A stretch of DNA of 64,000 nt from Candidatus Moraniibacteriota bacterium (GCA_003483065.1 DMWY01000001.1:8606-72605); one strand, 5' to 3'. Shown: positions 12,943 through 39,366, counted from the stretch's first letter. Notes: generated from the sequence alone by a model not told the origin. Translations and numbers: made by a program.

Positions 12943-12944
12943 GA

Positions 12945-17676: not shown

Positions 17677-17685
17677 AATATTAGT

Positions 17686-17711: not shown

Positions 17712-17742
17712 GAAATGAAATATTAATTATTAAATTTTAAAT

Positions 17743-18111: not shown

Positions 18112-18140
18112 TTATAAATTTGATATTGATTAAAAATTAT

Positions 18141-18159
18141 AAATTTAAAATTTAAAATT
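18141..18159. repeat. Right inverted-repeat arm (AAATTTAAAATT x2, overlapping)
   Basis: Reverse complement of the left arm. It lies 2 nt downstream of the GT2 stop. Confidence 0.5.
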
Positions 18160-18161
18160 GT

Positions 18162-21316: not shown

Positions 21317-21736
21317 TTATTTTCTGAAAACTAATTTTTTTCGCATAAAGAAATTCCAAAAAAGAACAAAAATAACAGCGATAATTTTGGCTAGCATTAC
21401 GGGGAGGCCGAGTTTGTCAGACAGCGACCAAAGGATGAATTCTGTCCAAAGAAGTCCAATAGCACCAACAGAGGCAAAGATAATAAATTCTTTTTTGATT
21501 CTGCCACTACTTTCAAAAACAAAAAGAACATTAATGGTGAAATTAGTTAGTATCCCACAACAATAGCTCACTGCGGCTGCGACAAGGTGGTTGATATGCA
21601 AGAATTGGTACAGAGCGAAAAGAACTGAAAGATCAACAAGTGTGGCTGTTCCGCCCGCCACTAAATACCGGAGAAATTGATGAAAAGTCTTCTCCGGCTT
21701 TTTTTTGAGGAAATTTTTTATATCTTCAATTTGCAT
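21317..21736 (-). CDS. GtrA-family small membrane protein (polyprenyl-P-sugar flippase family)
   Basis: FLRYLVAGGTATLVDLSVLF is present, with 4 TM helices and ~140 aa. The ATG at 21734-21736 is preferred over the TTG at 21748. Confidence 0.65.
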   Translation of the reverse strand: MQIEDIKNFLKKKPEKTFHQFLRYLVAGGTATLVDLSVLFALYQFLHINHLVAAAVSYCCGILTNFTINVLFVFESSGRIKKEFIIFASVGAIGLLWTEFILWSLSDKLGLPVMLAKIIAVIFVLFWNFFMRKKLVFRK

Positions 21737-23651: not shown

Positions 23652-25526
23652 TTATTTATTTGCCGATTGGGCACTGGTTATTTTAACATAATTATTAGTT
23701 CGTCCGCCAATGATAATTTTAAAGTCGCTAGATTCCTTTCCAGAATACATTTTTGTGAGATTTACTAATTCTGTGCCAATTTTGTAGTCTTGTGTTCCCA
23801 CTACCTTCGCTTCGCTAAATACCTCGTCTCTCTCACTTCGCGAAGTTACAAAGTAGTCAAAAGTGAGATTATCTTTCGCTTGCTGAGAACACTTACCAAT
23901 AAATTTTTCGCAAACTTGTTTCTTATCTGAAAAAATAACTAAATCTTTCGCATCAGGCAAAGCATTGAGATATTCTGATGCTTCCCAAGATCCGTCGGCC
24001 ATATCTCTAGGGTTGACAATGTATTTTTGTGGTAGAATTTCTGAAGAATAGGAAAGAAAAAATGGTCTAATGGATCGAAGTGAAATAATTGAAGTTAAAA
24101 TAAGTAAGGTTATTAGGATATAAAAAGTAGTTTCAGGAAGATATTTCTGGATGCTTTTTGACTTTATGAATTCATGAAGTCCAATAGCGGCAAGAATTGA
24201 GGCGAGGGGATAGATAACAATTTGATAGCGGACAGTCGAACTTATATGTGCTATAGAATTAGCTAAATAGAAAACTAAAATAAATGAAAGTAGATTGAAG
24301 GCCATTAAGAGATTATTTTTTTCTTTGATATTCTTGGAGAAAATCAGAAAGAAAACAGCTGAAATGAGAAATAGCGTAGTTATTGGTGGAATACCATAAA
24401 TTAAAGGGTAAAAAGCTGATAATAGACTGCTTAAAAATTCTGCAAAGGATGATGTGTCAGCTTTAGGCATGAAATGAATTGTTTCAAAATCGTAGTACTT
24501 CATTTCCTGAATGACATTTATAAAAACAAAAAATATTAAAAATAATACAAAAGAACTGATGATTTTTATGAATATTGATTTGTGAGTGCGAAAAGGAGCG
24601 CATATTTTTTGGACAAAAAAGCTTTTGAGTATGAATATATCAGCTGAAATTATAGCTAACATCGCTAGAAACATTGGCCATATTCTTTCAAAAGCCATAC
24701 TGAGAATAGTCGTTTCAAGGAGGCTTTTTATCGGTTTTATCCAGGCATTGGGATAAAAAATCAAAATAGTCGCGATTGAAATTAGAACGAGAATAAAATA
24801 ATCCCGCATTGATTTTTTGAAATACTGAATATTTTCTTCCTTAGAACAATCATCTAGGATATATTTTAGAAAAATCAAAGCTAGAAAAAAAGGAAAAAGC
24901 AAATTTGCAACAAATTTATTCAAAATTGAAAAACCAAGAATAATTCCGGCAAGATATAGAAACTTTCTGTTATTCTCTTTTTGATAAACCAAAAAACTCA
25001 AAAGAGAAAAAGGCATCAAAATCCAAAGAATGGCATCAGTGTTTACGATTAGGGAAATGCCCAGGAGAATTGGGGAGAGTCCGATAAAAATGATTGATAG
25101 CAGGGCGATTTTTTCATTCCATAATCTTTTGATGAAAAAATAAAAAAATGGCAAGGATAACAATGTGAATATATATACCGGTAATCGCAAAACGAGATAG
25201 ATTTTCTTAATAGTAGCTAATTGTTCCGGTGTTTTTGCTTGGGAGCGTATTTTTTCATATTTCTGCGGATCAGGAATAAAAGGTAACCCGATACCGGAAA
25301 TAGCAGCCAATGTTACGCCTGGTTTGTCGCATAAGCTAGTGCCTTTCCAGTTACCCTTTTTTATACTTTTCCAAAATCTCGGCACTCGATCATATGACCA
25401 AAGCGCTTCGTCGATTGCGCTGAATTTTTCAATTCTAGGAATGCCAAAATAGAGGTTTACAGAAATCACTGCGATAAACACAAGAATAGCTGGTATTTCT
25501 TTTTTTATTTTTGAAAATTTAACCAT
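23652..25526 (-). CDS. GT-C fold glycosyltransferase, tandem paralog of 21726..23639
   Basis: IDEALWSYDRVPRFWKSIKKGNWKGTSLCDKPGVTLAAISGIGLPF is collinear with its neighbour. Confidence 0.5.
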   Translation of the reverse strand: MVKFSKIKKEIPAILVFIAVISVNLYFGIPRIEKFSAIDEALWSYDRVPRFWKSIKKGNWKGTSLCDKPGVTLAAISGIGLPFIPDPQKYEKIRSQAKTPEQLATIKKIYLVLRLPVYIFTLLSLPFFYFFIKRLWNEKIALLSIIFIGLSPILLGISLIVNTDAILWILMPFSLLSFLVYQKENNRKFLYLAGIILGFSILNKFVANLLFPFFLALIFLKYILDDCSKEENIQYFKKSMRDYFILVLISIATILIFYPNAWIKPIKSLLETTILSMAFERIWPMFLAMLAIISADIFILKSFFVQKICAPFRTHKSIFIKIISSFVLFLIFFVFINVIQEMKYYDFETIHFMPKADTSSFAEFLSSLLSAFYPLIYGIPPITTLFLISAVFFLIFSKNIKEKNNLLMAFNLLSFILVFYLANSIAHISSTVRYQIVIYPLASILAAIGLHEFIKSKSIQKYLPETTFYILITLLILTSIISLRSIRPFFLSYSSEILPQKYIVNPRDMADGSWEASEYLNALPDAKDLVIFSDKKQVCEKFIGKCSQQAKDNLTFDYFVTSRSERDEVFSEAKVVGTQDYKIGTELVNLTKMYSGKESSDFKIIIGGRTNNYVKITSAQSANK

Positions 25527-25561: not shown

Positions 25562-27676
25562 CTATTTATTTTCAATTTTTCTTTTTTGAATATAGAAAAA
25601 TGAGCCAATAATAATTCCGGATATTAAGCTAAAAAATGTAGCAAAGTAGAAAGTTTTTGGGCAATAGCTGATTTCAATTAAATGATTGCCTTTTTCAAGT
25701 GGAAAATCAAAGAAAATTTCATTTTTTGTTATTTTGATTTTCCGACCATCAATTTTCACTTGCCAATTTTTATCATATTTTAGATAAGTGTTTATAATCT
25801 CATCAGAAGAATTGTTGATTTGCATAATCATATGCCCTTCTTCTTTTTTCAAGTAATGACCAGCTATGTTGTTTTTTATCAAATCGAGTTCATTATTATT
25901 ATCATTTAAATAAATAATTCTATCAGTATTGACTATGGAAGCGACTCCTGCCTTTTTTAAATTTTGGTAGTTTGGCGGTAATGCGTCATTGGAAGCAGGC
26001 ACTCCTCTTAACTTAATGCCTAATTTAGCATAATAATTAACATAGTTTTTTTCCTTGAGTTGGCTGTTTCCAAATGGACTCCAATTTTTATACAAAAGAG
26101 ACTCTGTTCCTACTATGGGAGTAGAATTTAATATAACTCTTTTGTTTTCTAATTCCTTAGGAATGGATGCTGTTTTATAATTGGATATATTATGTATTCT
26201 GGCGGACAGTACATCTTTACTAAAATAAATTAAATCAAAAAAAACTATTGCAATAAGAGCTATTTTGATTGATGGCAAGGCTTTGGCAAAAATGTGAGGG
26301 TGCCATTTTCTAAGAATAAATAACAAAAATAAAATACTAAACATTACTAGTACGATTATTTTGAGAATCGAAAAATATGGATAATTTTGAATATAATCAA
26401 ATGAGACATAGGAATTTATTTTTCTGGCAGTTCCTCCGGTTTCCGTACTTGCCAATACGAACATGTATATTATTGGAGATAATACAAGTAAAATGCCACT
26501 GCGTGTATTTCTAAAAGAAATCTCATTTAATTTTTCTATTAACATGGCCACCAAAAGAGCGATTCCGAAGCTGGAAAGTGCAGCGGTTCTTACCCATTCT
26601 CTAAAAAGTGTGATTATTGGCGTGTAGCTGGGAAATATTTTATTGTGATCCATAAAAGCAAATATCAAAAAAACCCATATAAATATAAAAGATAAAACAA
26701 TCTCCCTTGATTTTTTCAACATAAGTAAAGCCAAAACTGATAAAATCATAGAACTGATACCAAAATAGGTATATATTTCTCCATAACCAAAAGCATCAGT
26801 TATTTGTTGCCCTATGAAATTTTCATATTTTCCAAAGAGATAAGGAATAAAAGAAAAGACGGCCATGCGAGGGCTTAGGGAGCCCTTAAGATAATCTAGG
26901 TTGGAACTGCGCATACTTTGGTTGAATAACTCGTAAGTGGGTGCGAGTTGGGGAAGAGTTTCAAGAATAATTAGGGGAATGATAACTAAAAAATAAAAAA
27001 TAAATGTTCTAAGGGATATTTTTTTATAAGAAAAAACAATCATATATAAAAATATTCCTAAGCCAATAATGACTGCTGATTGCATATGCCCCCATAAAAT
27101 TGCATTGGCTATTACCAGAGATTGGAATAGAATATATCTGAATTTTTTCTTTTCAATAAAAAGATCCGCCAGGAGAAAGGCGGTCGGAATTAGATAAAGA
27201 GACATAGTCATATTGAAATGCACCTGATGATTAAGGAAAAAAGTGTTGAAATAAAATATTACATTTGCTGTGACAAAACCCAAAAGTCCAATGCCTCTGC
27301 GTTTTAACAGAAAATAAAGACTCAATGAGCCTAATAAATATTCGAATAAATGTAGTATCTTATAAGATAAGAGGGGACCAAAAATCAAAATACTCACATC
27401 ATTTAGCGGATTGAGAAAAGCGTTTTCCGGATCGGCATAAATAGGAAATCCAGAGTACATTCTTTCTGTCCAAAAAGGGAAGGAATGTTCCTGAGTAATT
27501 TTTTCATAAAAGTATGTTCTAGCAGGAACATGTTTTGTTTGTACATCAGATATTTTTCCCTCGCTACCCCAAAAAAAATTAGACGGAGTTAAGAATTGTC
27601 CAAAAAAAATAATGTATGTCAAGAATGAAAAACATACAGCGGATAAAAAAATTTTGTTACGAAGGATTATTCTCAT
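25562..27676 (-). CDS. YfhO-like large polytopic membrane glycosyltransferase (GT-C)
   Basis: The protein is 704 aa. The N-terminal FWTERMYSGFPIYADPENAFLNPLN resembles the YfhO W..g.P..a.p...f.P signature. Confidence 0.4.
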   Translation of the reverse strand: MRIILRNKIFLSAVCFSFLTYIIFFGQFLTPSNFFWGSEGKISDVQTKHVPARTYFYEKITQEHSFPFWTERMYSGFPIYADPENAFLNPLNDVSILIFGPLLSYKILHLFEYLLGSLSLYFLLKRRGIGLLGFVTANVIFYFNTFFLNHQVHFNMTMSLYLIPTAFLLADLFIEKKKFRYILFQSLVIANAILWGHMQSAVIIGLGIFLYMIVFSYKKISLRTFIFYFLVIIPLIILETLPQLAPTYELFNQSMRSSNLDYLKGSLSPRMAVFSFIPYLFGKYENFIGQQITDAFGYGEIYTYFGISSMILSVLALLMLKKSREIVLSFIFIWVFLIFAFMDHNKIFPSYTPIITLFREWVRTAALSSFGIALLVAMLIEKLNEISFRNTRSGILLVLSPIIYMFVLASTETGGTARKINSYVSFDYIQNYPYFSILKIIVLVMFSILFLLFILRKWHPHIFAKALPSIKIALIAIVFFDLIYFSKDVLSARIHNISNYKTASIPKELENKRVILNSTPIVGTESLLYKNWSPFGNSQLKEKNYVNYYAKLGIKLRGVPASNDALPPNYQNLKKAGVASIVNTDRIIYLNDNNNELDLIKNNIAGHYLKKEEGHMIMQINNSSDEIINTYLKYDKNWQVKIDGRKIKITKNEIFFDFPLEKGNHLIEISYCPKTFYFATFFSLISGIIIGSFFYIQKRKIENK

Positions 27677-27835: not shown

Positions 27836-29629
27836 ATGACAAACCTATTAACCAAAAAATATGCCGTTGCGATTGTTATGCTAGCGATAGTCATCGGCGC
27901 TTTTACTTTCCGTTTTTACAATTTTTCTGATTGGTTATATTTCAAGATGGACCAATCGCGCGACGCGCAACTCATTAGTCATGCTATAAACGAAGGACCG
28001 ATGATGCTATCACTTTTGGGACCGAGAGCGGGCGCAACCGAAGTGGATAATGGCTTTTTGCGACTTGGTCCGGCCTATTATTATTTTCAATACATTTCTG
28101 GTTTTGTTTTCAATTCTACCGCTCCACAAGTCTTTGCCTATCCGGATTTGTTTTTTTCGATTTTGGGGATAATTTTGCTCTATTTTTTCTCGAGAATTTA
28201 TTTTTCCAAAAATATTTCACTTCTCATTTCGGCGATGTACGCTTTTTCTTTTATTGTGATTCAGTATTCTCGTTTTGCTTGGAATCCTAACTCGTTGCAA
28301 TTTTTTGCCCTGCTAACTTTTTTGGGACTTTTGAAATTTTTGAGCGAACAAAAATTAAAAAGAAAAATAGGCTGGCTAATTGTTTGGGCACTCGGGCTCT
28401 CTATTGGATCACAACTACATTTTTTTGGTTTCTTTGTGCTCACAGCTATTTCTGGGTGTCTCATTTTTTTTCACAGTCAATTTTGGCGATTACAAAAAAT
28501 CAAAGATATATTTCAGAAAAATATTTTGCAAAAAATAGCCGTTTATTCTTTGATTTTCATCTCTGTCTTCGCTTTGATTTATTCGCCTGTGATCATAAGC
28601 GACATAATGAGAAAGGGTGAAAACGCCGGAAATTTCATTCAAGCTTTGAGTTCTAAGGCGAAAAACAAAACTTTCGCAGAAAAAATATCCAAGAATTTTT
28701 CTGAGAATACTAAATATTATTGTCTCATCACCACTTCTTTTTGCGGAGAAGGGGAACCGTTTGATAGCGCAAAAAGTGCCTTGGCGTCAATTTTTTCGCT
28801 CGCATTGATTTTTTCCGGTTTGATTTTGATTGGGAAAGCCTTGCAAAAAGAAAAGAGTATTGAGAGGAGAAATTTTTTGGCGTTGCTGTTTTTATGGGTA
28901 GGCATGTTTTTCATTTTTACTTTTCCGGTTTCTTTTCAGCTTCGTCCAAGATTTTTCATTCTAGTTTTTGCTGTGCCATTTTTGCTTAGCGGAATAATAT
29001 TTGATTTTTTTCAAGAAAAATGGACAAAAAAAGCAATGTATTTTATTTTGGTATTTGCAACTATGATAATTGGATTAAATATATATGGAACACTGGCATG
29101 GTTTTCGGAGATGAATCAATCTCAAACTAAGGATGTGGAAATAAGTCGTACGTTGATTTTGAAAAACCAAGATGGTGTGACTTTAGGTGAACTGCAAAAA
29201 GCATCGGATTTTATCTATGAAAAAAGAAAAATAGGCAAAGACGTTTATTATTATGTAAAACCTGAGCATATAAATCCGATAAAATATATTTTAGCGCAAA
29301 AGAAAGACGCTAATTTTGTTTATGCGACTTTAAGTTTAAATGAAAATCCTAATGCTCAGTATTTTGCGATTATTCCTTCTGATGCTGATCCAAAAAAAGT
29401 TTTGGAAAAAAAATATGAAGTGCCGGTTGAGATATTATCTTCTCAAAATTGTGGCCAAATTTCAGTTTATGAGATAACTTTTCCCGAAAGAACTATTTCT
29501 AAGAATTTCAGATTTAACAAAAAATATTCCAAAACCGATCGACTTTTTTGGAAAGATGTTTTTGGAATAAGGAAAAGTTCAATTGAGGACGAAGATGAAT
29601 TAACTGATGATATAAATATGAATGAGTAA
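27836..29629 (+). CDS. GT-C-like membrane glycosyltransferase, 'DQSRD' paralog 1
   Basis: RFYNFSDWLYFKMDQSRDAQL...LGPAYYYF...PDLFFSIL...QYSRFAWNPNS is present. Confidence 0.5.
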   Translation: MTNLLTKKYAVAIVMLAIVIGAFTFRFYNFSDWLYFKMDQSRDAQLISHAINEGPMMLSLLGPRAGATEVDNGFLRLGPAYYYFQYISGFVFNSTAPQVFAYPDLFFSILGIILLYFFSRIYFSKNISLLISAMYAFSFIVIQYSRFAWNPNSLQFFALLTFLGLLKFLSEQKLKRKIGWLIVWALGLSIGSQLHFFGFFVLTAISGCLIFFHSQFWRLQKIKDIFQKNILQKIAVYSLIFISVFALIYSPVIISDIMRKGENAGNFIQALSSKAKNKTFAEKISKNFSENTKYYCLITTSFCGEGEPFDSAKSALASIFSLALIFSGLILIGKALQKEKSIERRNFLALLFLWVGMFFIFTFPVSFQLRPRFFILVFAVPFLLSGIIFDFFQEKWTKKAMYFILVFATMIIGLNIYGTLAWFSEMNQSQTKDVEISRTLILKNQDGVTLGELQKASDFIYEKRKIGKDVYYYVKPEHINPIKYILAQKKDANFVYATLSLNENPNAQYFAIIPSDADPKKVLEKKYEVPVEILSSQNCGQISVYEITFPERTISKNFRFNKKYSKTDRLFWKDVFGIRKSSIEDEDELTDDINMNE

Positions 29630-31397
29630 TATTTTGGAAAAAATAAAAAAATATCAAATTGCAATAATATTATCGCTAATTATTATTGTCGGTATATTTT
29701 TGCGCACCTATCATTTTTCGGATTGGTTGTTTTTTCAATCTGACCAATCAAGGGATTTGAATTTGGTAAGTCATGCAGTTGAAAATGGTCCTGGTTGGCT
29801 ACCGCTTTTAGGGCCAAAAGCCGGAGGAACATTTTTGCGCTTGGGTCCGATTTTCTATTATTTTCTATATCTTTCCGGAAAAATTTTTGGACTGAGCGAA
29901 CCTTGGAAAGCTGCTTTTCCGGATTTGTTTTTTTCTGTTTTGACCATTCCACTTTTCTATTTTTTCCTCAAAGAATTTTTTTCCAAAAATTGGACACTTA
30001 TAATCACGGCTTCATACGCAGTTTGTTTTTTTGCGGTTCAATATTCTCGCTTTGCTTGGAATCCCAATTCTCTGCCTTTTTTCAATCTGCTTTTCTTTTA
30101 TGCTTTATTGAAATTTTTTGATGCTTCGGATAGACGAAGAATGATTTGCTGGACAATAGTTACGGGAATTTCTTATGCCATTGCTAGTCAACTTCATTTT
30201 GTTTGTTTTTTTAGTTTTCCGATTGCCACCTTGGCAATTATTTTATTTCGAAAAATTATTCTTAAATATTCAGTCGGTCAATTTTTCAAATATGTCCCGA
30301 TTGTTATTGCCATTTTTATTTTATTTTATATTCCAATGATACTTAGCGATATGCAAGCCGACGGGAATAATGCGATTAATTTTTTGGTTTCTTTTGAAAG
30401 TAAGAGTTCGGATTCTGGGATAGCAGAGCTTGCAAAGACAAATATTTTTAATTTTTCCAAGTACTTTGCAATTATTTGGTCGGGCGTGGTTGATGCGGAT
30501 AAAAAAACATACAAATTATTTTCATACTTTATGCTTGCCGGATTGATTGGTGGAGGCTTGCTTTTTAGAAAAGAAACAGACGTAAGAAAAAAAATGTTTA
30601 TATTTGCAATTTTTGCGTGGCTTATTTCTTATTTCATTGTTTATTTCCCTCTAGGATCAAAGGTTCAGCCGAGACATTTTTTGCCGATTTTGCCGTTGCC
30701 ATTTATCTTTTGGGGATTTTTGATTTTATTTATAAATAAAATCAGCTGGAAATATAAATCTTTGATCATTGGGTCAATGTTGTTTTTGCCTATCGCGCTT
30801 AACGCGTATAGCGTCAAAACTTGGTTTGGCGAGCTTGGCGATTCGCAAACTAAAATTTCTCATCCGAGAAAATCAGCGCTTTTGAAATCAGTAGAGGGTG
30901 AAGATTGGTGGCATTTGAAAAAAACGGCTGAATATATAAAAAATGATTGCTATGGAGAAGATAAAAAAATATTCATTATTCCGCTTAAGAAAAGCTATCG
31001 CGATCTTATTAGTTATTCACTGGAAAGTATTGGAGAAAAAAGGGAATACAGTATAAAACTCGGATCGATGGAATATTATCCGGACAGTTGCTATTATTTT
31101 ATGTATTTTATGAAAAATTATTCTCCTGATTATTTTGATGGGCAAATAAGAAAAATAAGCGAAAAAAGTTTTGGTGATATTGGCGTTGTGCATTTTAAAA
31201 TAAATTCACAAGCGATAGCAGGGGGGGATAAAATTGAAAATCCTTTCAGAAAAGAAGACGGAGGGCAAGAAAGAAAAGATAGTAATATTGAAAGTGGCTC
31301 AGATGACAATAGCTCAATCGATGGAAGTGAGGATAATTCATGGTTGATTCCAAAAAGAAGAGAAAGAATTTTCTGGAAAGATTTATTTAATCAATAA
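29622..31397 (+). CDS. GT-C-like membrane glycosyltransferase, 'DQSRD' paralog 2, with acidic/Ser-rich C-terminal tail
   Basis: RTYHFSDWLFFQSDQSRDLNL...QYSRFAWNPNS is present. The tail reads GGQERKDSNIESGSDDNSSIDGSEDNS. The ORF overlaps paralog 1 by 8 nt. Confidence 0.5.
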   Translation: MSNILEKIKKYQIAIILSLIIIVGIFLRTYHFSDWLFFQSDQSRDLNLVSHAVENGPGWLPLLGPKAGGTFLRLGPIFYYFLYLSGKIFGLSEPWKAAFPDLFFSVLTIPLFYFFLKEFFSKNWTLIITASYAVCFFAVQYSRFAWNPNSLPFFNLLFFYALLKFFDASDRRRMICWTIVTGISYAIASQLHFVCFFSFPIATLAIILFRKIILKYSVGQFFKYVPIVIAIFILFYIPMILSDMQADGNNAINFLVSFESKSSDSGIAELAKTNIFNFSKYFAIIWSGVVDADKKTYKLFSYFMLAGLIGGGLLFRKETDVRKKMFIFAIFAWLISYFIVYFPLGSKVQPRHFLPILPLPFIFWGFLILFINKISWKYKSLIIGSMLFLPIALNAYSVKTWFGELGDSQTKISHPRKSALLKSVEGEDWWHLKKTAEYIKNDCYGEDKKIFIIPLKKSYRDLISYSLESIGEKREYSIKLGSMEYYPDSCYYFMYFMKNYSPDYFDGQIRKISEKSFGDIGVVHFKINSQAIAGGDKIENPFRKEDGGQERKDSNIESGSDDNSSIDGSEDNSWLIPKRRERIFWKDLFNQ

Positions 31398-31412
31398 AAT
31401 AATAGTTAAATT

Positions 31413-33038
31413 ATGAATTTTTTGAAAAAAATTGGCAGAAAAGAAAAAATAATAGTCGTTATTAGTTTTCTTGTTTTTTTGGTTATTGGAATATTTTTGC
31501 GAACATACCATTTCTCTGATTGGCTTAGATTTAATATGGATCAGTCGCGTGATGCAGAATTGATAGAAAACTTGAGTGAAAACAATGATTTGCCAAAATT
31601 AGGCCCGGGAGCGGGCGGAACAGAATTTCAATTGGGCCCGGCATTTTATTATTTTCAATTAATTTCAGCAAAAATATTTGGCGTGGAGCCGGAAAAATTA
31701 GCTTATCCGGACTTGTTTTTTTCAATTTTGTCGATCGGCCTGTTCTTTCTTTTGGTAAAAATTTATTTTGAAATTCCCATCGCATTGACTTTGACTTGGC
31801 TGTATTCAATTTCATATTTTGTGGTTAAATTTTCTCGTTTTGCTTGGAATCCAAACTCTACGCCATTTTTTGTGATGTTTTTTATCTATGCGCTTTATAA
31901 TTTGGCAATTTCACAAAAAAGGAAAATTGTTTGGGCAATTTTGACAGGAGTGTCTTTGGGAATTTGCATTCAATTACACACCTCGCTTTTGATAATTCTG
32001 CCGATACTTTCTTTTTTTGTAGCTATTATTTTTATCAGGAAAAAAATAGTTTCGACAACTATAATAGTAATTGTTATCGCAACTACTATTTTTGCTAATG
32101 TTCCACAAATTGTCACGGAAATTAGAAGTGGCGGATTTAATTCCAAACAATTTATATTGGGGATTACTAATAAAAATGAGCGAAATAATAGCTGGGCGAA
32201 TAATCTTGCCTTGAATTTTTCTTGTCATATCAAAACCAATAATCACATCCTTACTTCCATGGGAAATGAAAATGAGTGCGGGTATGAAAATGATTGGAAA
32301 ACATTCAAGAAGTTGGATGGCAAAAGAATGACTATTGGAGAAAAAATATTTTTTGTTGCATCAATTTTGCTATCATTGATATTTTCATTGGGAGGATATT
32401 TTCTTCTATTTAAAAAAACTATAAAAGAAAGCGATAAGAATAAAAAACTTTTCTTGGGTTTTATAGTGGGTTATATATTTTTGTCTTTTGTTTTCTACAT
32501 AACTTGGGCTACTGAATTGGCAGTGCGTTTTTTCCTGCCATTGTCATTTGTTCCGTTTATAATCCTAGGTTTTTGGTTGAATTTTTTTGAGAAAAAATTC
32601 AAAAAAGGCCTATGGATTGTGGTAATAATCATTGCTAGCATTTCGTTTTTTAATTTGCAAAAAATATCACATACGTACAGGGATTTGCAATATGGCGGGA
32701 AGGAGATTAATGGCGATTTTGATTATCTGACTTTAGGAGAGGGAAAATATGTGGTTGATTTTGTCAAAAACAATACTGATAAAAAAACAAACGTTATCGA
32801 TGCGCAAGCTGGTTATCTTTTTAAATCAATTCGCTCACTTCAATTTTTGGCGGGGAAAGAAAATATCGAAATAATTCAACTGAAAAAAGAGATTGAATTA
32901 AATTCTGGAGACAGACTGTTTTATTTGAAAAATGCTGAGAATAAATGCGAACTCTCTCAAGAGATAGCAAAAAAATATGACATTGAAAAATGTTCAATTT
33001 TTCGCCAATTTTCAATTTTTGTATTAAAAGTTAAATAA
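31413..33038 (+). CDS. GT-C-like membrane glycosyltransferase, 'DQSRD' paralog 3
   Basis: RTYHFSDWLRFNMDQSRDAEL...KFSRFAWNPNS is present. Confidence 0.5.
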   Translation: MNFLKKIGRKEKIIVVISFLVFLVIGIFLRTYHFSDWLRFNMDQSRDAELIENLSENNDLPKLGPGAGGTEFQLGPAFYYFQLISAKIFGVEPEKLAYPDLFFSILSIGLFFLLVKIYFEIPIALTLTWLYSISYFVVKFSRFAWNPNSTPFFVMFFIYALYNLAISQKRKIVWAILTGVSLGICIQLHTSLLIILPILSFFVAIIFIRKKIVSTTIIVIVIATTIFANVPQIVTEIRSGGFNSKQFILGITNKNERNNSWANNLALNFSCHIKTNNHILTSMGNENECGYENDWKTFKKLDGKRMTIGEKIFFVASILLSLIFSLGGYFLLFKKTIKESDKNKKLFLGFIVGYIFLSFVFYITWATELAVRFFLPLSFVPFIILGFWLNFFEKKFKKGLWIVVIIIASISFFNLQKISHTYRDLQYGGKEINGDFDYLTLGEGKYVVDFVKNNTDKKTNVIDAQAGYLFKSIRSLQFLAGKENIEIIQLKKEIELNSGDRLFYLKNAENKCELSQEIAKKYDIEKCSIFRQFSIFVLKVK

Positions 33039-33042
33039 TTTG

Positions 33043-34647
33043 TCAATTTCGTTCCAAGTAAATAAAAAATCTTCCATACGAATCATATGTAATTGGTGGT
33101 AGCGGTTCATTTAGTACTTTATTTTTTTTCTTTGAGCTAGTTAAATAAAATATCTGATCTGAAGATGAATTTTTTGTAAGACCAGTATCGTCTTTATTAA
33201 TGGAGATTAAGTTTATATCAGATTTGGCCACGAAAAATTTGATTGAGTTTGATGATTTTCTGAGATATTGTTTCTTTCCTTCGATATAAGCCACACCTCC
33301 TTTATTTGAATTGTTAATAATAAATTGAGAAATTACCTCTATTTCTTTTAGCGTAACATTTTCTATGGTGGCGATATCTTGACGAAGACCACCATTTTCA
33401 ATTTTTTTAAAATCAGCGAAATAATTCAAGGTGAAAAAAATATTGGTTGCGATAAGTATGAATATTGATAAGAATGGGATATAAGCATAGTTGCCAAGCA
33501 ATCTATCTGTTAAAAATTTTATCCATAAGCCAAGTAAAATAAAAGGCAAAAAAATCAGAGGGAGAAAGAATCTCATTGAAATTTCATATGCCAGAGGCAC
33601 AAAAAGTAAATAAGCAATTCCTGAATACAGAAAGATTAGTATCAAGAAAGATTTTCTGTTCCAGTCCTGCTCTTGCAAAAAATATTTAATTCCAATCACT
33701 AAACCACCCACAGCAAAGACTAATCCAGACAAAAAAATTATCCAATCAGTTTTTTTGCTGGTTAGTTTGATGGTACATCCATCGGATATCGCATAGCCTG
33801 AAAGAGTGACAACACTGCTTTGTACCCAACAGCTTGAATCTTGTAGGACATTTCTCATCAATTTGTTTTTTGAATCTTTTCTGGCATTTACACCAGAAAA
33901 GAATTCGGCGATATTTTTGCCACCTGTTTGATATTCATTAATAAATTGAGGAATGTTTAGAAATAATGATATTGTTAAAATTATAAAAAAATATTTAAAT
34001 AGGTTTATTTTTTTAATAAATAAAAATCCAAAGACAATTATCGTAGTTATCGGAAGAAGCAATAGCGATGTTGTGTGTAATTGAACTCCGACGCCAATGG
34101 CTATACCGGTGATTATCGCCCAAAATGCTCTGTTGGTATTTTTTTGAGAAATAATATTGTGGATTCCATAAAGACTTAGAATTGTCCAAAATGGCGTAGA
34201 GTTGGGATTCCAAGCGAAACGGGCATATTGAATAGCATAAAAAGACATAGTCAATAAGGTAGCCATTGATAATGATATCTTGATATTAAAATATTTGCGA
34301 AGAAAAAAGAAAAGAAGTGGTATGCACAATATTGATGAAACTAAATCCGGATAAGCCATTTTATCAGGAAAGTTTCCGAATATCTTAGCGGAAATTATTT
34401 GAAAATAATAAGGCATTGGTCCAAGTTTGAAAAAAGTGCCACCCGCTTTAGATCCCAATAACGGAAGCGGGCTTGTTCCATCAACTACACTACCGATCAA
34501 AATGGCATCACGACCCTGATCCATATTAAAGCGAAGCCAATCATGAAATTTATAGGTGCGAAAAAAAATACCTACTATTAATATAAGGCCAAAAATCGCA
34601 TAAATAAATCGCTTAGAATTTAAAATTGTTTTTATTTGTTGGAACAT
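33043..34647 (-). CDS. GT-C-like membrane glycosyltransferase, 'DQGRD' paralog 4 (convergent)
   Basis: RTYKFHDWLRFNMDQGRDAIL...QYARFAWNPNS is present. Confidence 0.5.
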   Translation of the reverse strand: MFQQIKTILNSKRFIYAIFGLILIVGIFFRTYKFHDWLRFNMDQGRDAILIGSVVDGTSPLPLLGSKAGGTFFKLGPMPYYFQIISAKIFGNFPDKMAYPDLVSSILCIPLLFFFLRKYFNIKISLSMATLLTMSFYAIQYARFAWNPNSTPFWTILSLYGIHNIISQKNTNRAFWAIITGIAIGVGVQLHTTSLLLLPITTIIVFGFLFIKKINLFKYFFIILTISLFLNIPQFINEYQTGGKNIAEFFSGVNARKDSKNKLMRNVLQDSSCWVQSSVVTLSGYAISDGCTIKLTSKKTDWIIFLSGLVFAVGGLVIGIKYFLQEQDWNRKSFLILIFLYSGIAYLLFVPLAYEISMRFFLPLIFLPFILLGLWIKFLTDRLLGNYAYIPFLSIFILIATNIFFTLNYFADFKKIENGGLRQDIATIENVTLKEIEVISQFIINNSNKGGVAYIEGKKQYLRKSSNSIKFFVAKSDINLISINKDDTGLTKNSSSDQIFYLTSSKKKNKVLNEPLPPITYDSYGRFFIYLERN

Positions 34648-34660: not shown

Positions 34661-36139
34661 TTATTTTTTCTTGCGGACGATATTTTTGAAATAAAGTATA
34701 TCGTCTTTTTTTATTTCTCCGAAGATATAAAGAATAAAAAGATAAAAACCAAAAAGAATTGCTGACCAAAAAAGGAAAGCGATTTCTCCCTGAGAGAAAA
34801 AGAGTGATGCGCCATACATCAGGATTCCAGCCAAAAGTGTTCTTATTAGACTCTTTAGTTTTATCAAAACTCCAAAATCGCGCCAGAGATAATAGAGCAT
34901 CCAGAGCATTATTATCAGGGATGTGATGGTGGTGGCAATGGCTGAACCGACAATACCATATTTTCCAATTAGAATATAATTTAAAATTGCATTGATAACA
35001 AAACCCAGAATGGAAATGAGCATGGTAATTTTGGTTTTGCCAGCGCCATTCATCGCAAAACTCATCACATAGAAGATTGTGAGAAATCCGACTCCATACT
35101 CCAAAATCGACATAGCTTGCGCTCCAGAGGCATATTTTGCCCCGTAGAAGTCCAAAAGAATGGGCTTGGCGAAAACGGACATCAAAATGATCATTGGCAC
35201 TAAAAGAATAAGCATAATGCGCAGTGAATCTCCCAAAATCTTGGCGGTTTTTTCGTGATTATTTTGTGAAGTTGATTTTGACACCATAGGCAAAAGAAAA
35301 ACTGTCATAGCATAAAAAACATAGTAGGGGATTCGACCGACCGTGAGGGCTGCGTTATAAATTCCAGTTAATTTGTCATCATGCAAAATGGCTTTTACCA
35401 AATAGAGATCAATGCTGATTAAAAGTTCATAAGCCAAAAAGAAAATGACAATTTGCCAGGCGTAATTTAGTAATTTTTTCCAAGGAAAAAAAATTTCAAC
35501 CTTATTTTCCTTTTGCGCTTGTTTTTCAAGTTGCGGAGAGATGTAAAATTTATCTATTAAAAAAGCTACCAAAAAAACTGATCCAGGAGCGACGATATAT
35601 CCAACTATCGAACCTTCTACTTTCCAAAAATAGGCCAGCGAAATCACAAAAGCAATTCGGAAAATTGAACGTAGTGTTTTGAGGGTAGCTTGAAGATTGA
35701 ATTTGTGTAGTCCGGTATAGAAGGAAAAATAAAAGGATGCGGCTGCGAAAGCTGGGATTATGAGGGTGGAAATGCGAAAAAGGGGAATGAGGGTTGGGTC
35801 GCCCAGTAGTCGGCAAATAAGCGGAATGGAAAAAAAGAAAATTATTGTAATACCCGCAATTATTATTGTTTGCAATATTATCGCTTGGTGTTTTATTTTT
35901 TGCACCATTCGAGAATTATTTTCAAAATATTCGCTAATATATTTGCTCATTGCCGTTGGAATGCCATTGCCGATGAGAATTATGACCATTGTGGTGAGTG
36001 TGATGACAAGCCCATATCGTCCATAATCTGCGGGGCCCAAAAATCTTCCCAAAACACTGTGAATAATGAAACCGGAAAGATTGAAAAAAATTTCCGAGAT
36101 TGTCACCCAGACGGCCGATTTAGCTAGATTGCTTTTCAT
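34661..36139 (-). CDS. Wzx-type oligosaccharide/polysaccharide flippase (MOP superfamily)
   Basis: The protein is 492 aa with ~12 TM helices. The N-terminal AKSAVWVTISEIFFNLSGFIIHSVLGRFLGPADYG is present. Confidence 0.65.
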   Translation of the reverse strand: MKSNLAKSAVWVTISEIFFNLSGFIIHSVLGRFLGPADYGRYGLVITLTTMVIILIGNGIPTAMSKYISEYFENNSRMVQKIKHQAIILQTIIIAGITIIFFFSIPLICRLLGDPTLIPLFRISTLIIPAFAAASFYFSFYTGLHKFNLQATLKTLRSIFRIAFVISLAYFWKVEGSIVGYIVAPGSVFLVAFLIDKFYISPQLEKQAQKENKVEIFFPWKKLLNYAWQIVIFFLAYELLISIDLYLVKAILHDDKLTGIYNAALTVGRIPYYVFYAMTVFLLPMVSKSTSQNNHEKTAKILGDSLRIMLILLVPMIILMSVFAKPILLDFYGAKYASGAQAMSILEYGVGFLTIFYVMSFAMNGAGKTKITMLISILGFVINAILNYILIGKYGIVGSAIATTITSLIIMLWMLYYLWRDFGVLIKLKSLIRTLLAGILMYGASLFFSQGEIAFLFWSAILFGFYLFILYIFGEIKKDDILYFKNIVRKKK

Positions 36140-36705
36140 AAAAAGGATTTTATTTTTTTATAAATTTCTTCTTGATTTTGATTGCCATCAATCAGTTTCA
36201 TGTTCCACGTGAGATATTTTTCGTCATATAATTCTTTTTTCTTTTGGAGATAATCAATTCCTTGATCAGGTTTTCTTTCTCGAGACATAATAATTTTTGG
36301 ATTAGCTTGAAGATAGATGGCTATGTCAGGAGATTTGATGAATTTTTCACAAGGAATGTTTTTTTGTGAATTACTTAGAAAATAAATATTAATTACACTG
36401 TCATAAAAATACCGATCAGAGAGAATATAATCATATTTTTCTTTTTCTAATTTTCTATATAATTTTTTGAAACGCCAAATATCAATCATCAGAAATATTC
36501 TTCGCAGGATAATTTGAAGGAAAGTGGCTTTCGTTACGCTCTTACTAGAGCCAATTTTTTTTCTTGCAAATTTATTAGCCAAAGAAAAAGCTATTGCATG
36601 AAAATAAAAAACCCGCTTATTTTGCGATTTCAAATATTCTTTTAGCAATTCTGCTTGAGTTGATTTTCCTGAGCCATCGAGGCCGGAAATTGTGATTAAT
36701 TTCAT
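36136..36705 (-). CDS. dTMP-kinase-like P-loop nucleotide kinase
   Basis: ISGLDGSGKSTQ is the P-loop, and LSDRYFYDSV is a DRY motif at the Tmk-typical position. The ORF overlaps the Wzx start by 4 nt. Confidence 0.45.
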   Translation of the reverse strand: MKLITISGLDGSGKSTQAELLKEYLKSQNKRVFYFHAIAFSLANKFARKKIGSSKSVTKATFLQIILRRIFLMIDIWRFKKLYRKLEKEKYDYILSDRYFYDSVINIYFLSNSQKNIPCEKFIKSPDIAIYLQANPKIIMSRERKPDQGIDYLQKKKELYDEKYLTWNMKLIDGNQNQEEIYKKIKSFL

Positions 36706-36734
36706 TTTATTTTTTACTAATTACGAATTGTATG

Positions 36735-38243
36735 TCAGTACATAATAACAGCTACGGGTTTCATTTTAGCAACAACATGAGCAATTTTATTAGCTTCAAT
36801 ACCTTCGATAACCTTATCAATATCTTTGTAACGAGAAGAATCTTGATTGATAACAATCGAAGATTTAGCATTATAAATTAGAATATTTTTTTCTTTCATT
36901 TTTGCGAAAAGTTCATCTTTATTAGAAATGGTTTTTTCATGAGAATTGGTGCCCTTACCTGTTCCATGAGGAGCTGAAAAAAAGCTGTCTTGATTTTCAT
37001 CTGTTCCAACGCAAATATAGGCATCAGTTGCCATTGAAGATGGAATGAAAACAGGCTCGCCAGTTTCTTTGTAGATTGAATGATTTTGCATTTTGCTAGG
37101 GCCATATGCTCTGGAAGTATTGCTTCTATGAACAAAGACATCACGCCCAAAATGCTCTTCTTTGGAAATTGAAATATGGGGCATGTCATAAAGCAAATCC
37201 ATTTCCGGATCACGTCCGAGAACTTTTTTTATCGTTTTGGAGATATTATGAGTGATGACTGCTCTGTTGGCTGTGCCGAAATTAGAAGCGGCCGCTCGAG
37301 CGTTCATATAAAGTTTTCCATCCGCTTCTTTTCCAGCGTAGCGAAGCAGGGAATTATTTTCTGATAAATGATTTTTTATCATCTCTTGCATTTTTTTGTA
37401 AGTCTCTTTTTTTCTAGAACGAAAAGTCATTTTTCCAAGTTCTACCATAAGAGCTTGTGAAAGATGCTCGCGTTTTTTTGCAGTATGAGTATACATTGTA
37501 TATTGACCCAAAATTCCTGAGCCTGTGTGAATCATAAAAAGATATTGTCCTTTTTCTATTCCCATTTTTTTGGCAATTTTTTCGTCAACAATCTCATCTA
37601 CTTTCATAAGATCCAGAAAATGATTACCCGCTGCACCCAAAATCCCTAGTCGATATTTAGCAAAGAATAAATATAGTTTTGGTATCACATCAAAGATATC
37701 TTGTTTCTCCATGGTTTTTGGAAAAAAATTTCCATCACCTTGAGTGTTTTCAAGCTCGTTTTTTGTTTTGATTCCGAGGTGTCTGATTATAGCAGATGTT
37801 CCTTCTCGACAAATATCAACTATAACATCAAAGGGGACTTTGGTTCCGACAAATTTTTTAGTTGGAACGGTAACTACTAATTCCTTGAAAATATTGTCAA
37901 TATCATTGCTAGTCAAATTATCTTCAGTTAAATTAGTTTTAATTAGACGCATTCCACAGTTTGGGTCTGAGTCATTGACTTGAGGCAGGATATAATTTTC
38001 GCTGACTATAGTTGTTCCGGAAGCATTTTTTCTGCCTGGTTTTGAACAAACATCCGGCATAGCGACTAAATTACGAAAAAGTGTATCTTGATTAGAAGCA
38101 ATATCTTCTAATTTTTCAAAAGAATCATCCTTAGGCATCAATTCTTCGCTCATAAAAAAAACGGCTGGAACAGACATTTTTGCTGTTTGAAATTTTTGTT
38201 TGTGCTCAGAAAGGTTGTTAATTTTATAATTATTATTGTCCAT
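36735..38243 (-). CDS. rtcB: RtcB-family RNA ligase
   Basis: AMPDVCSKPG, NCGMRL, HTGSGILGQ and SAPHGTGKG match conserved RtcB blocks. The start is set at the internal Met (38243), 4 nt after the upstream stop. Confidence 0.55.
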   Translation of the reverse strand: MDNNNYKINNLSEHKQKFQTAKMSVPAVFFMSEELMPKDDSFEKLEDIASNQDTLFRNLVAMPDVCSKPGRKNASGTTIVSENYILPQVNDSDPNCGMRLIKTNLTEDNLTSNDIDNIFKELVVTVPTKKFVGTKVPFDVIVDICREGTSAIIRHLGIKTKNELENTQGDGNFFPKTMEKQDIFDVIPKLYLFFAKYRLGILGAAGNHFLDLMKVDEIVDEKIAKKMGIEKGQYLFMIHTGSGILGQYTMYTHTAKKREHLSQALMVELGKMTFRSRKKETYKKMQEMIKNHLSENNSLLRYAGKEADGKLYMNARAAASNFGTANRAVITHNISKTIKKVLGRDPEMDLLYDMPHISISKEEHFGRDVFVHRSNTSRAYGPSKMQNHSIYKETGEPVFIPSSMATDAYICVGTDENQDSFFSAPHGTGKGTNSHEKTISNKDELFAKMKEKNILIYNAKSSIVINQDSSRYKDIDKVIEGIEANKIAHVVAKMKPVAVIMY

Positions 38244-38247
38244 AAAT

Positions 38248-39366
38248 TTAGATTTCTTTATAAATTTCTTGATAAATTTCGGCGATTTTTTTGATGTCGA
38301 AATTTTCCTCACAAAATTTTCGGGCATTTTTTCCAAGGAGGTTTCTTTTTTCCTTGTTTTGATATAAATCAGAAATCGCATCAGTTAATTGTTTTAGATT
38401 GTCTTTCTCAATTATAACAGAATTATTATTATTGCCCAATTCTTTTAGAATTTCCAGATTTGTTAGAATGACCGGTTTTTCGCAAGCCATCGTTTCAATA
38501 ACTGCTAGGGGAATATCAAATTTGCCGTGCATATTTTGCACTGGAAAAAGACTGATGTCGCAGAGATTATAAACTTCCCTCATGTCGTATTTTCCATCAT
38601 CAAAAAAAGAAACTTTTTCCAGGAGATTATTTTTTTTTATTTTTTCCATAACCTCTTCTTTTTTCTGCGCGTCTTTTTCGTTTTTAATTCTAACTGCCAG
38701 GGTGAGTTTAGCTTCGGGAATTTTTTTGGAAATTTCAATGAAACTATCAACAACTAAATCAATCGCGCCAAGGCGCACATATTCTCCAGAAAAATTTATC
38801 ACAAAATCATTCGGTGAAATATTTTTCTCTTTCATAAGCCCCAAGTTTTTTTCTTGAGGTTGATATTTTTCCAGATCAATTCCTGGGTAAACCCTTTTGA
38901 CATTTTGAAACCCAAGGGAATTTAATTTGCTCTTGGCATAATCGGAATAGGTGATGATAAGATCGGCAAACATCAAATTTTTTATGTCATCCGACGACCA
39001 TAAATCGTCGCGAAGAGAGGCGACAGTTTGAATAGTTTTAGTTTTAAAAGATTTGAAAAAATGCTTAATCAGGAAGGAGTTGAGTTTGGTTGGAGTGAAG
39101 AAATAATGATTGATATCAAACTGACCTTTAGTTTTGAATTGAAAAAAAAGAGCGCGAATTTTTTGAGAAAAGTTAAAATCGCGAATTTCTGAAGTTGAAT
39201 AAACCGAATGCTGGTGAACATTATCAGATAATTCAGGCAAAATTCCCTTGGTCATCAGATTAATTTCAAAACCCGCTAGGTTTTTTGCTAGGTAATATGC
39301 AAAATTTTTTGAACCTTCGTCCCACGGCGGGGCAATCGGCCTCGTTACTAGAAGTATCTTTTTCAT
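38248..39366 (-). CDS. Glycosyltransferase family 4
   Basis: VIETMACEKPVILTN is present. Confidence 0.65.
   Translation of the reverse strand: MKKILLVTRPIAPPWDEGSKNFAYYLAKNLAGFEINLMTKGILPELSDNVHQHSVYSTSEIRDFNFSQKIRALFFQFKTKGQFDINHYFFTPTKLNSFLIKHFFKSFKTKTIQTVASLRDDLWSSDDIKNLMFADLIITYSDYAKSKLNSLGFQNVKRVYPGIDLEKYQPQEKNLGLMKEKNISPNDFVINFSGEYVRLGAIDLVVDSFIEISKKIPEAKLTLAVRIKNEKDAQKKEEVMEKIKKNNLLEKVSFFDDGKYDMREVYNLCDISLFPVQNMHGKFDIPLAVIETMACEKPVILTNLEILKELGNNNNSVIIEKDNLKQLTDAISDLYQNKEKRNLLGKNARKFCEENFDIKKIAEIYQEIYKEI

Follow-up and report, generated by a model that had tools for sequence, protein, structure and literature searches.

Four adjacent GT-C class A-like membrane proteins with an Asp-Gln motif in a Moranbacteria glycan island

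The 64,000-nucleotide stretch of Candidatus Moraniibacteriota DNA analysed here (the window) encodes four homologous membrane proteins that make up a divergent, uncharacterised subfamily of a known kind of enzyme. We consider them, with fairly high confidence, to be best explained as GT-C class A glycosyltransferases (PMT_2/ArnT/PMT-like) that would move a sugar from a lipid carrier to an acceptor on the cell surface. In all four, the second acidic residue of the Asp-Glu (D-E) signature of PMT and ArnT enzymes is absent and Gln is found instead, which could mean an altered chemistry rather than the canonical mechanism.

Paralog 1 (27836-29629, + strand, 597 aa), a predicted GT-C class A membrane glycosyltransferase, matches a hypothetical protein from Candidatus Moranbacteria bacterium GW2011_GWF2_36_83 with 100% identity. 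It is followed by paralog 2 (29622-31397, +, 591 aa; PMT_2 E = 1.5e-4, under the Pfam cut-off), paralog 3 (31413-33038, +, 541 aa; PMT_2 E = 3.3e-8) and, convergent with paralog 3, paralog 4 (33043-34647, −, 534 aa; PMT_2 E = 7.3e-9), with 4 nt between the last two stop codons. Genes 1 and 2 overlap by 8 nt (ATGAGTAA, 29622-29629, +), in which gene 1 stops and gene 2 starts, and the same 8-nt junction was found at another locus (L005). The outer coordinates of the four-gene group, the + + + then convergent − arrangement and the overlap had all been proposed in an earlier reading of the sequence alone (the sequence-only reading), and the ORF listing reproduced them exactly. The same is true of the proposed homology: in the alignment the other three paralogs are 37, 32 and 30% identical to paralog 1, and even the least similar pair gives a BLASTP E of 2e-62 over 559 columns, far beyond chance. 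Compared with paralog 1, a neighbouring DE-type GT-C gene reaches only E = 0.18, so the four paralogs are a separate family.

Structural comparison places this family among the GT-C enzymes. The AF2 model of paralog 1 (pLDDT 89.8, pTM 0.90) returned 21 Foldseek matches with E <= 0.001, and all 21 are GT-C enzymes. The predicted topology is consistent with 11 transmembrane helices, an N-terminus on the inside and, on the outside, a small alpha/beta domain at the C-terminus, and the polytopic core, the N-terminal module of TM1-7 and the two juxtamembrane helices between TM1 and TM2 that mark GT-C class A are all seen. In this class the two juxtamembrane helices, JM1 and JM2, lie between TM1 and TM2, and every member depends on an Asp at the JM1 tip (PMC12041299). 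D39 of paralog 1 matches this Asp in position: in the AF2 model it stands at the tip of JM1, the N-terminus of helix 38-53, which follows TM1 directly. Positive-inside analysis puts it outside, the K+R density per residue being 0.28-0.35 for the proposed cytoplasmic loops and 0-0.14 for the proposed outside loops (mean, 268 sequences). The model and the loop analysis thus bear out the earlier placement of the DQ pair outside the membrane after TM1.

Pfam agrees with Foldseek in giving a GT-C fold. Paralog 1 scores 35.1 bits against PMT (PF02366, cut-off 22.7), paralogs 3 and 4 score 34.4 and 36.5 bits against PMT_2 (PF13231, cut-off 26.1), and paralog 2 scores 22.4 bits against PMT_2, under the gathering threshold of 26.1. 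NCBI names the homologs 'glycosyltransferase family 39 protein' or 'phospholipid carrier-dependent glycosyltransferase', and an NCBIfam search of the paralogs gave weak, sub-threshold Agl23 matches and no specific subfamily model. The suggestion of a possibly unclassified GT-C subfamily therefore holds at the level of a subfamily model, but not at the level of the family, where the Pfam and NCBI assignments place it. Profile searches of the PDB sequences with 4-sequence and 57-sequence alignments gave no match even at E <= 10, and the link to solved structures comes from fold comparison alone.

The motifs DQ[SG]RD, RFAWNPN, QLH and [PVM]R[FH]F are common to all four paralogs. DQSRD of paralog 1 (D39-D43; 27950-27964, +), with D39 as the putative catalytic Asp, has its equivalents at 29742-29756, 31539-31553 and 34507-34521 (−) in paralogs 2, 3 and 4, respectively. 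RFAWNPN (R146-N152; 28271-28291, +; equivalents at 30048-30068, 31836-31856 and 34201-34221 (−)) lies in the second outside loop, QLH (Q193-H195; 28412-28420, +; equivalents at 30189-30197, 31971-31979 and 34075-34083 (−)) in the third, and PRFF of paralog 1 (R372, F373; 28946-28957, +) in the fifth. The longer consensus strings first attributed to all four copies stand in their core motifs but need amendment at the edges, since paralog 2 has RDL and not RDA, paralog 4 has LLGS and PDLVSS in place of LLGP and PDLFFS, and paralog 3 has KFSRF for QY[SA]RF.

The C-terminal regions are more individual. Paralogs 1 and 2 do share the R[LI]FWKD[VL]F motif ascribed to them, as RLFWKDVF (29540-29563, +) and RIFWKDLF (31365-31388, +). 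The looser pattern R-x-[FYW]-W-x-D is present in 104/128 sequences whose best match is paralog 1 and in 18/24 for paralog 2, with 0 carriers in the paralog 3 and paralog 4 best-match groups. In the paralog 1 model the block holding most of the motif (residues 571-580) has a mean pLDDT of 84, and the flanking blocks 64 and 46. Paralog 2 also has an acidic Ser/Asp-rich linker (residues 547-572; 31260-31337, +). This tail, described earlier as unique, is real and confined to paralog 2 among the four copies in the window; it is not unique to this genome, because orthologs of paralog 2 have similar, often longer, acidic linkers.

Conservation was counted over 268 aligned sequences. The primary Asp, D39, is kept in 263 of the 266 residues at its position and Q40 in 257 of 266, so that the D-Q state, raised earlier as possibly clade-wide, proves to be so; R42 is found in 263 sequences and D43 in 265. 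Gln at position 40 is family-wide and not obligatory, a few members having E, A, S or G: related array members have DE, DA, DS or DG in place of DQ. The outside-facing polar residues R42, D43, R146, N150, N152, Q193, H195, N263 and R372 are invariant or nearly so, with N150 and N152 present in 267/267 residues each. The conserved carboxylates that remain besides D39 are D43, one helical turn after it, and, at the outside end of TM2, D104.

The second outside loop has undergone a parallel loss, which the sequence-only reading had missed. The Asp found there in other enzymes (D158 of ArnT, D176 of M. tuberculosis PMT) is absent, no D or E occurs in residues 145-151 of any of the 268 sequences, and the invariant N150-P-N152 is there instead.

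Residue equivalences with ArnT, numbered via the 5ezm alignment, were obtained with hhalign. In both local and global modes FKMDQSRDAQ aligned to ArnT WQPDETRYAE, LGP to EKP, WNPNS to VLDPF, H195 to a Lys (K203) and PRFF to LPTY, with F373 at the ArnT LPGY segment that holds Y345. The pairings were the same in both modes at a probability of 17% (local) and 5% (global) and an E of about 1e-3, against a low-diversity template for which the homolog search gave only sequences >=76% identical to E. coli ArnT. Given these weak scores and the empty PDB search, the equivalences rest on consistent low-confidence alignments and on position in the secondary structure; at this level, DQ falls at the place of the ArnT D-E pair, as the sequence-only reading had suggested. 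Alignment to the two neighbouring DE-type proteins covered TM2 to TM5 only (probability 38%), short of the first outside loop.

In the characterised enzymes the acidic pair is D55/E56 (ArnT) or D77/E78 (Pmt1), and charge pairs are formed by E78-R138 in Pmt1 and D158-K203 in ArnT (PMC7801869). With Gln in place of the Glu, N-P-N in place of the Asp and His in place of the Lys, both charge pairs have probably been replaced by neutral hydrogen-bond networks, as judged from the aligned residues. The key residues of M. tuberculosis PMT are D74, D176, R441 and Y444, and its R441/Y444 are comparable to R372/F373 of PRFF in paralog 1 (PMC12331936).

The family is a large branch specific to this lineage. 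Clustered at 50% identity, it makes up 661 clusters with E <= 1e-30, and Moranbacteria commonly carry it as tandem arrays of 2 to 8 copies, with up to 8 in a 20-kb stretch. A GTDB scan yielded 280 loci, and one of these arrays, L005, has a putative recombination junction. Each paralog has orthologs of up to 80-86% identity in other Moranbacteria (at most 81% for paralog 3), and a neighbour-joining tree puts the four into separate clades, each of which also contains sequences from 13 to 67 further loci (35 for paralog 2). With identities between paralogs of only about 30-41%, depending on the alignment, the idea that the copies diversified locally is not borne out: these are old duplications, and arrays of several copies characterise the lineage as a whole. 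The dN/dS between orthologs is 0.11-0.16. The same ratio among the four copies, which had been proposed as a check, is uninformative because dS between them is saturated (1.5-4.0).

The four genes lie in a glycan island of roughly 50 kb. At one end are a DUF2304 membrane protein of the GacJ and Rv3632 family (17329-17676, −) and a GT2 similar to PpgS (18162-18839, −), with a PF05635 gene between them, and a GT2 with full-length similarity to ArnC and PgfS (18953-19891, +; NF007986 E = 7.8e-51, residues 4-309 of 312, under the curated cut-off), a candidate polyprenyl-phosphate sugar synthase. These are followed by a GtrA-family small membrane protein (21317-21736, −; PF04138 E = 5e-25), a candidate lipid-phosphate sugar flippase, two GT-C genes of PMT_2 type that have the canonical D-E motif (21726-23639 and 23652-25526, −; SGVDEPYW and SAIDEALW) and a YfhO-family GT-C gene (25562-27676, −; YfhO E = 2.4e-11, over just the C-terminal part of the profile) oriented divergently from paralog 1. 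Directly downstream of paralog 4 along the window is a Wzx/MurJ-superfamily flippase gene (34661-36139, −); this adjacency is conserved at another locus (L002), and the neighbourhood is conserved in another genome. Further on, the island contains a DUF6541/DUF1616 polytopic membrane protein (39738-41633, −), which we presume to have a GT-C fold, a GT2 similar to AglJ and PpgS (42832-43815, −), a candidate lipid-phosphate sugar synthase, and genes for a Wzy_C protein (O-antigen ligase/polymerase-like; 45389-47032, +), a GT4 (47081-48241, +) and a LytR-CpsA-Psr (LCP) ligase (48328-49545, +). The NCBIfam matches of the GT2 synthase candidates are all under the curated cut-offs. GT2 synthase candidates, GtrA- and Wzx-type flippases and GT-C enzymes are encoded together, as in a multi-component glycosylation system with the pairing of partners presumed; GacIJKL is an experimentally characterised analogous system (bioRxiv 10.1101/180810), and others have been characterised experimentally as well (PMC8035078, PMC11127046).

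A working scheme for the favoured GT-C class A reading would be as follows. Each paralog would take a sugar from a polyprenyl-phosphate-sugar at the external face of the membrane and pass it to a cell-surface acceptor activated by D39. The ArnC/PgfS-like, PpgS/GacI-like (with DUF2304) and AglJ-like GT2 enzymes of the island would supply the donors, which its GtrA-type or Wzx-type flippase would then flip. Binding of the lipid phosphate would fall to two residues of the fifth outside loop, R372 and F373, and to the LGP segment of the second juxtamembrane helix. A wall-linked glycopolymer is the most likely acceptor, because the Wzy_C protein and the LCP ligase are encoded nearby; a protein of the cell surface is a less likely one. 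Sugar, linkage or acceptor position probably varies from paralog to paralog, and the four may serve as alternative decorators or carry out consecutive steps in an assembly line outside the cytoplasm.

Two canonical acidic positions are neutral in these proteins. Any replacement of D77 or E78 abolishes Pmt1 activity (PMC7801869), and canonical DE-type GT-C genes adjoin the paralogs, so the proteins might instead be catalytically inactive GT-C-like subunits, such as acceptor-binding or scaffold partners for the adjacent DE-type and YfhO enzymes. We regard this as very improbable: the primary catalytic Asp is kept, the conserved outside polar residues form an active-site pattern, selection is strongly purifying, and the occurrence of Glu, Ala, Ser or Gly at position 40 in some array members suggests that this position is not critical here. 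The same residues could, in a bolder reading that we hold to be possible but doubtful, mark a mechanistically distinct, Moranbacteria-restricted GT-C class A lineage. An amide/imidazole network (Q40, N150, N152, Q193, H195) with D39 and D43 as catalytic carboxylates would then support a different chemistry or substrate class (for instance a retaining mechanism, a charged acceptor or a donor whose head group is unusual), and 2-8 recombining tandem copies per genome would generate variable surface glycans of importance for the host-attached life of these ultrasmall bacteria or for their evasion of phages.

A rival reading is that of true protein O-mannosyltransferases (GT39-type), which would transfer mannose from polyprenyl-phosphate-mannose to Ser/Thr of proteins that are secreted or lie on the surface, for example pilins or S-layer proteins. 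We think this unlikely, since the D-E pair and the second-loop Asp needed in characterised PMTs are not conserved (PMC12331936, PMC7801869), PMT-bearing bacteria usually have a single copy whereas 2 to 8 tandem copies are common here, the surrounding island, with Wzx, Wzy_C and LCP, is of the polysaccharide type, and no GDP-mannose pathway gene was identified among the scanned ORFs. Another rival is an oligosaccharyltransferase- or ligase-like role, in which a whole lipid-diphosphate oligosaccharide, flipped by the adjacent Wzx, would be transferred to a protein or polymer. The features of STT3/PglB/AglB (GT66) that were looked for, namely the DxD-type metal-binding acids of the second loop and a C-terminal domain with a WWDYG-type motif, are not present in the paralogs, and such a role is quite improbable.

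To our knowledge, the cell envelope of CPR (candidate phyla radiation) bacteria is almost without experimental description, and a literature search for GT-C enzymes in Patescibacteria or Moranbacteria returned nothing relevant. The family is among the most expanded gene sets of Moranbacteria envelope islands and, given its number of clusters and of tandem copies, probably shapes surface glycans. Nature here provides a strongly conserved example of a primary Asp retained next to neutral residues at two sites considered important in PMT and ArnT, those of the second acidic residue and of the second-loop Asp. GT-C enzymology thereby gains an existing system for testing which carboxylates catalysis really requires. 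DQxRD, RFAWNPN and QLH together give a simple signature for annotating the subfamily, whose practical importance is modest pending the identity of donor and acceptor.

Among known systems, ArnT (GT83; lipid A 4-amino-4-deoxy-L-arabinose transferase; 5ezm, 5f15) has the signature DExRYA where the paralogs have DQxRDA, D158 and K203 where they have N-P-N and His, and 13 helices where 11 are predicted for the paralogs, in which no equivalent of its Zn-site residues E84, H265 and H267 was seen. As far as we know, lipid A is not an expected product of Patescibacteria such as these, which would require an acceptor other than that of ArnT; an ArnT-type role in lipid A modification was rejected on the organism's biology. 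The PMTs (GT39; yeast Pmt1/2/4, M. tuberculosis PMT) have the Glu of D-E and the second-loop Asp, whereas the paralogs have Gln, no such Asp and no MIR domain, and form multi-copy tandem arrays in a polysaccharide island. The mycobacterial EmbA/B/C, AftA-D, PimE and MptA/B are likewise several paralogous GT-Cs, which use polyprenyl-phosphate sugars to build a single wall glycan stepwise, and several mycobacterial extracytoplasmic GT-C enzymes are metal-independent (PMC12041299). The closest functional analogy, by gene content, is to the Gram-positive multi-component systems (GacL of GacIJKL; GtlB, CsdD/F, YkcB; YfhO), which combine a PMT_2-type GT-C with a GT2 synthase, DUF2304, a GtrA- or Wzx-type flippase and an LCP ligase, as here; those systems usually have one GT-C per GT2, whereas this island has four DQ-type, two DE-type and one YfhO gene side by side.

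The ORF listing contains four long genes with the boundaries proposed by the sequence-only reading: paralog 1 at 27836-29629 (+, 597 aa), paralog 2 at 29622-31397 (+, 591 aa), paralog 3 at 31413-33038 (+, 541 aa) and paralog 4 at 33043-34647 (-, 534 aa). Paralogs 2, 3 and 4 align with paralog 1 at 37, 32 and 30% identity, and the pair with the lowest similarity among the four gives a BLASTP E value of 2e-62 over 559 columns; judged by sequence, the proteins are clearly homologous to one another. DQ[SG]RD, RFAWNPN, QLH and [PVM]R[FH]F are common to all four. The longer consensus strings of the earlier reading hold overall, with departures at RDL in paralog 2, KFSRF in paralog 3, and LLGS and PDLVSS in paralog 4. 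As claimed, genes 1 and 2 overlap by 8 nt (ATGAGTAA), paralog 2 carries an acidic tail rich in Ser and Asp, and paralogs 1 and 2 share R[LI]FWKD[VL]F at their C-termini. At 100% identity, paralog 1 matches a hypothetical protein recorded for Candidatus Moranbacteria bacterium (GW2011_GWF2_36_83...), which assigns the window to the candidate phyla radiation (Patescibacteria). The G+C content of the window is ~28-39%.

The D-Q state is clade-wide. In an alignment of 268 sequences, 145 of them added to represent clusters at 50% identity, position 40 (numbering of paralog 1) is Q in 257, E in four, A in two, S in two and G in one, whilst D39 is present in 263, R42 in 263 and D43 in 265. DQ[SAGV]RD is found in each of the 120 best matches from a database clustered at 90% identity. 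The four paralogs and their homologs, here termed the DQ family, amount to 661 clusters at E <= 1e-30 and 2107 at E <= 1e-10. Arrays in other genomes have one recurrent member with DE, DA, DS or DG that retains N-x-N, in several cases (loci L004-L083) the gene following the paralog 1 ortholog. Thus the Gln is typical of the family but not indispensable.

The proposal that the four copies had diversified locally proved wrong. Among the database matches, the closest orthologs of paralogs 1 to 4 are 84, 60, 81 and 51% identical, respectively, compared with ~30-41% between the paralogs, the latter varying with the alignment. A neighbour-joining tree was built from 249 ORFs of the family, taken from the window and from the loci retrieved from other genomes; each window paralog has an exclusive clade in it, with members from 67, 35, 13 and 22 loci for paralogs 1 to 4. 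Ortholog pairs gave dN/dS values of 0.11-0.16; among the paralogs, the comparison suggested earlier, dS was saturated. Scanning GTDB species genomes with a sequence pattern gave 280 loci. Of the 80 retained, nearly all carry either the label Moraniibacteriota, Parcubacteria or Patescibacteria or one that is uninformative or probably mis-assigned. Copies were counted in 83 related loci of up to ~22 kb, fetched with at most 10 kb either side of the match. Of these fetched loci, 64 contain tandem arrays of two to eight copies (two copies in 8 loci, three in 25, four in 12, five in 7, six in 6, seven in 5 and eight in 1), and the other 19 have one copy. The arrays are dynamic. In L005 (JAURXY010000034.1), the closest long-contig relative, the gene following the paralog 1 ortholog has the same 8-nt overlap; this gene (11787-13406) is paralog 2-like over residues 1-~35 and 80-90% identical to paralog 3 over the rest. 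From its sequence, it looks like a chimera formed by unequal crossover of tandem paralogs within the conserved GIFLRTYHFSDWL block.

A motif at the very C-terminus, R-x-[FYW]-W-x-D (29540-29563 in paralog 1, 31365-31388 in paralog 2), is found in 104/128 members of the paralog 1 group and 18/24 of the paralog 2 group, and in none of the paralog 3 or 4 groups. It is preceded by a disordered, often acidic linker. The block containing most of the motif has an average pLDDT of 84, against 64 and 46 for its flanks, so the motif may dock onto its own protein.

The four genes sit within an envelope-glycan island of ~50 kb that includes at least six GT4 genes, several GT2 genes, two methyltransferase genes, a UDP-glucose dehydrogenase gene, asparagine-synthase-like genes, a DUF6541/DUF1616 polytopic membrane protein, a Wzy_C protein, an LCP ligase and a Wzx/MurJ-type flippase adjoining paralog 4. 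By sequence, three GT2 proteins are similar to synthases of polyprenyl-phosphate sugars: 18953-19891, whose whole length aligns with ArnC (E = 7.8e-51) and PgfS (E = 3.7e-43), 18162-18839 (-), which matches PpgS (E = 1.9e-43), and 42832-43815, which matches AglJ and PpgS. Near the PpgS-like gene lies a DUF2304 gene (17329-17676, -); the family members GacJ and Rv3632 stimulate GacI and PpgS (bioRxiv 10.1101/180810). Between these two genes (17329-18839, -) is a PF05635 ('23S rRNA intervening sequence protein') gene, 17743-18111. A full-length glutamine-dependent asparagine synthase homolog (12945-14837, -) and a second, weakly Asn_synthase-like protein (1472-3052, +) are encoded among glycosyltransferase genes and may amidate a sugar or peptide. 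Three ORFs of the island, 426-458 aa long and located at 6607-9250 (+) and 14818-16194 (-), had no Pfam match. A PD-(D/E)XK nuclease gene with Cas4-like and DUF7376 matches (56488-57642, -) is unrelated to the paralogs.

Directly upstream of the four genes are a YfhO-type GT-C gene and two PMT_2 genes (21726-23639 and 23652-25526, -) that are 44% identical to each other. The PMT_2 proteins keep the canonical D-E (SAIDEALW, SGVDEPYW) and the Asp of the second outside loop (NTDAILW), and have no detectable BLAST similarity to the DQ family (E = 0.18). A GtrA-family gene (21317-21736, -; PF04138, E = 5e-25) overlaps the 3' end of the first of them by 11 nt, an arrangement suggestive of coupled translation. 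The order PMT_2, YfhO, DQ-type copies, flippase, thymidylate-kinase-like, RtcB, GT4, DUF1616, GT4, GT2 is kept in a second genome, whose paralog 1 ortholog is 61% identical. The thymidylate-kinase-like and RtcB RNA ligase genes (36136-38381, -) are flanked by the flippase gene on one side and a GT4 gene on the other, a placement conserved in another Moranbacteria genome (L002, 13330-15557). The RtcB ORF as listed (36735-38381) shares 134 nt with the GT4 ORF upstream of it (38248-39366), so the true RtcB start is probably further downstream.

Multi-component extracytoplasmic glycosylation begins with synthesis of a lipid-phosphate sugar inside the cell; once flipped, the sugar serves a GT-C enzyme on the outside (PMC8035078; PMC11127046). 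The island has the parts list of such pathways, which suggests that paralogs 1-4 are their outer-face transferases. The target that they decorate or extend would be a wall-linked glycopolymer, surface proteins being less likely, and the four would be distinguished by their sugar, linkage or acceptor site. The family should be of moderate interest to GT-C enzymologists and to those working on the candidate phyla radiation envelope.

The assignment to the GT-C fold was right, as was the placing of D-Q. Pfam PMT matches paralog 1 (35.1 bits, cut-off 22.7), and PMT_2 matches paralogs 3 and 4 above its cut-off and paralog 2 slightly below. The earlier suggestion of a possibly unclassified subfamily is only partly right. 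NCBIfam has no specific model for the family, and profile searches of PDB sequences gave no match. Within a well-known enzyme class, the DQ family forms a divergent subfamily specific to its lineage. Over the 268 members, K and R are dense in the N-terminus and in five short loops (0.28-0.35 per residue) and sparse in the loops alternating with them (0-0.14). This pattern is consistent with an 11-helix transmembrane topology, N-terminus inside and C-terminus outside, and it places residues 28-101 outside. In the predicted model of paralog 1, TM1 is helix 10-27 and this loop comprises helix 38-53, with D39-Q40 at its N-terminal tip, a beta hairpin (64-76) and helix 80-100. Class A GT-C enzymes likewise have a kinked TM3 and, separating TM1 from TM2, two juxtamembrane helices, the first of which holds an essential Asp at its tip (PMC12041299; PMC12331936); the loop and the position of D39 match this layout.

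An hhalign comparison of the family profile with E. coli ArnT gave identical pairings in local and global modes: FKMDQSRDAQ with WQPDETRYAE, RLGP with FEKP, WNPNS with VLDPF, H195 with the Lys of TKG, and PRFF with LPTY. Through a phmmer alignment of E. coli ArnT to PDB 5ezm, these pairings correspond to D55/E56, K85, D158, K203 and Y345 of the Cupriavidus enzyme. The hhalign support is weak (probability 17% local, 5% global), so the equivalences rest on the agreement of alignment, secondary structure and topology rather than on any single test.

The DQ family is marked by an active-site variant with conserved neutral residues. D43 (265/266) lies one helical turn from D39, at the position taken in ArnT by the Tyr of RYA; D104 (220/268) is at the outer end of TM2. 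The sequence-only reading missed a second substitution, in the second outside loop (RFAWNPN, 28271-28291, + in paralog 1, with equivalents in paralogs 2-4). N150 and N152 are invariant (267/267), and D or E is absent from residues 145-151 in all 268 sequences. H195, of the QLH at 28412-28420 (+) in paralog 1, which has equivalents in paralogs 2-4, is present in 266/268 and aligns with K203 of ArnT, which forms a salt bridge with D158; in Pmt1, where E78 forms a charge pair with R138, replacing D77 or E78 abolishes activity (PMC7801869). At the place of N-P-N, ArnT, PMT and PglB have an essential Asp or DxD: ArnT has D158 and Mycobacterium tuberculosis PMT has D176, whilst PglB and STT3 have DxD in the equivalent loop (PMC12331936; PMC7801869). 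The DQ family appears to have swapped both charge pairs for neutral hydrogen-bonding residues, retaining D39 and gaining D43 and D104.
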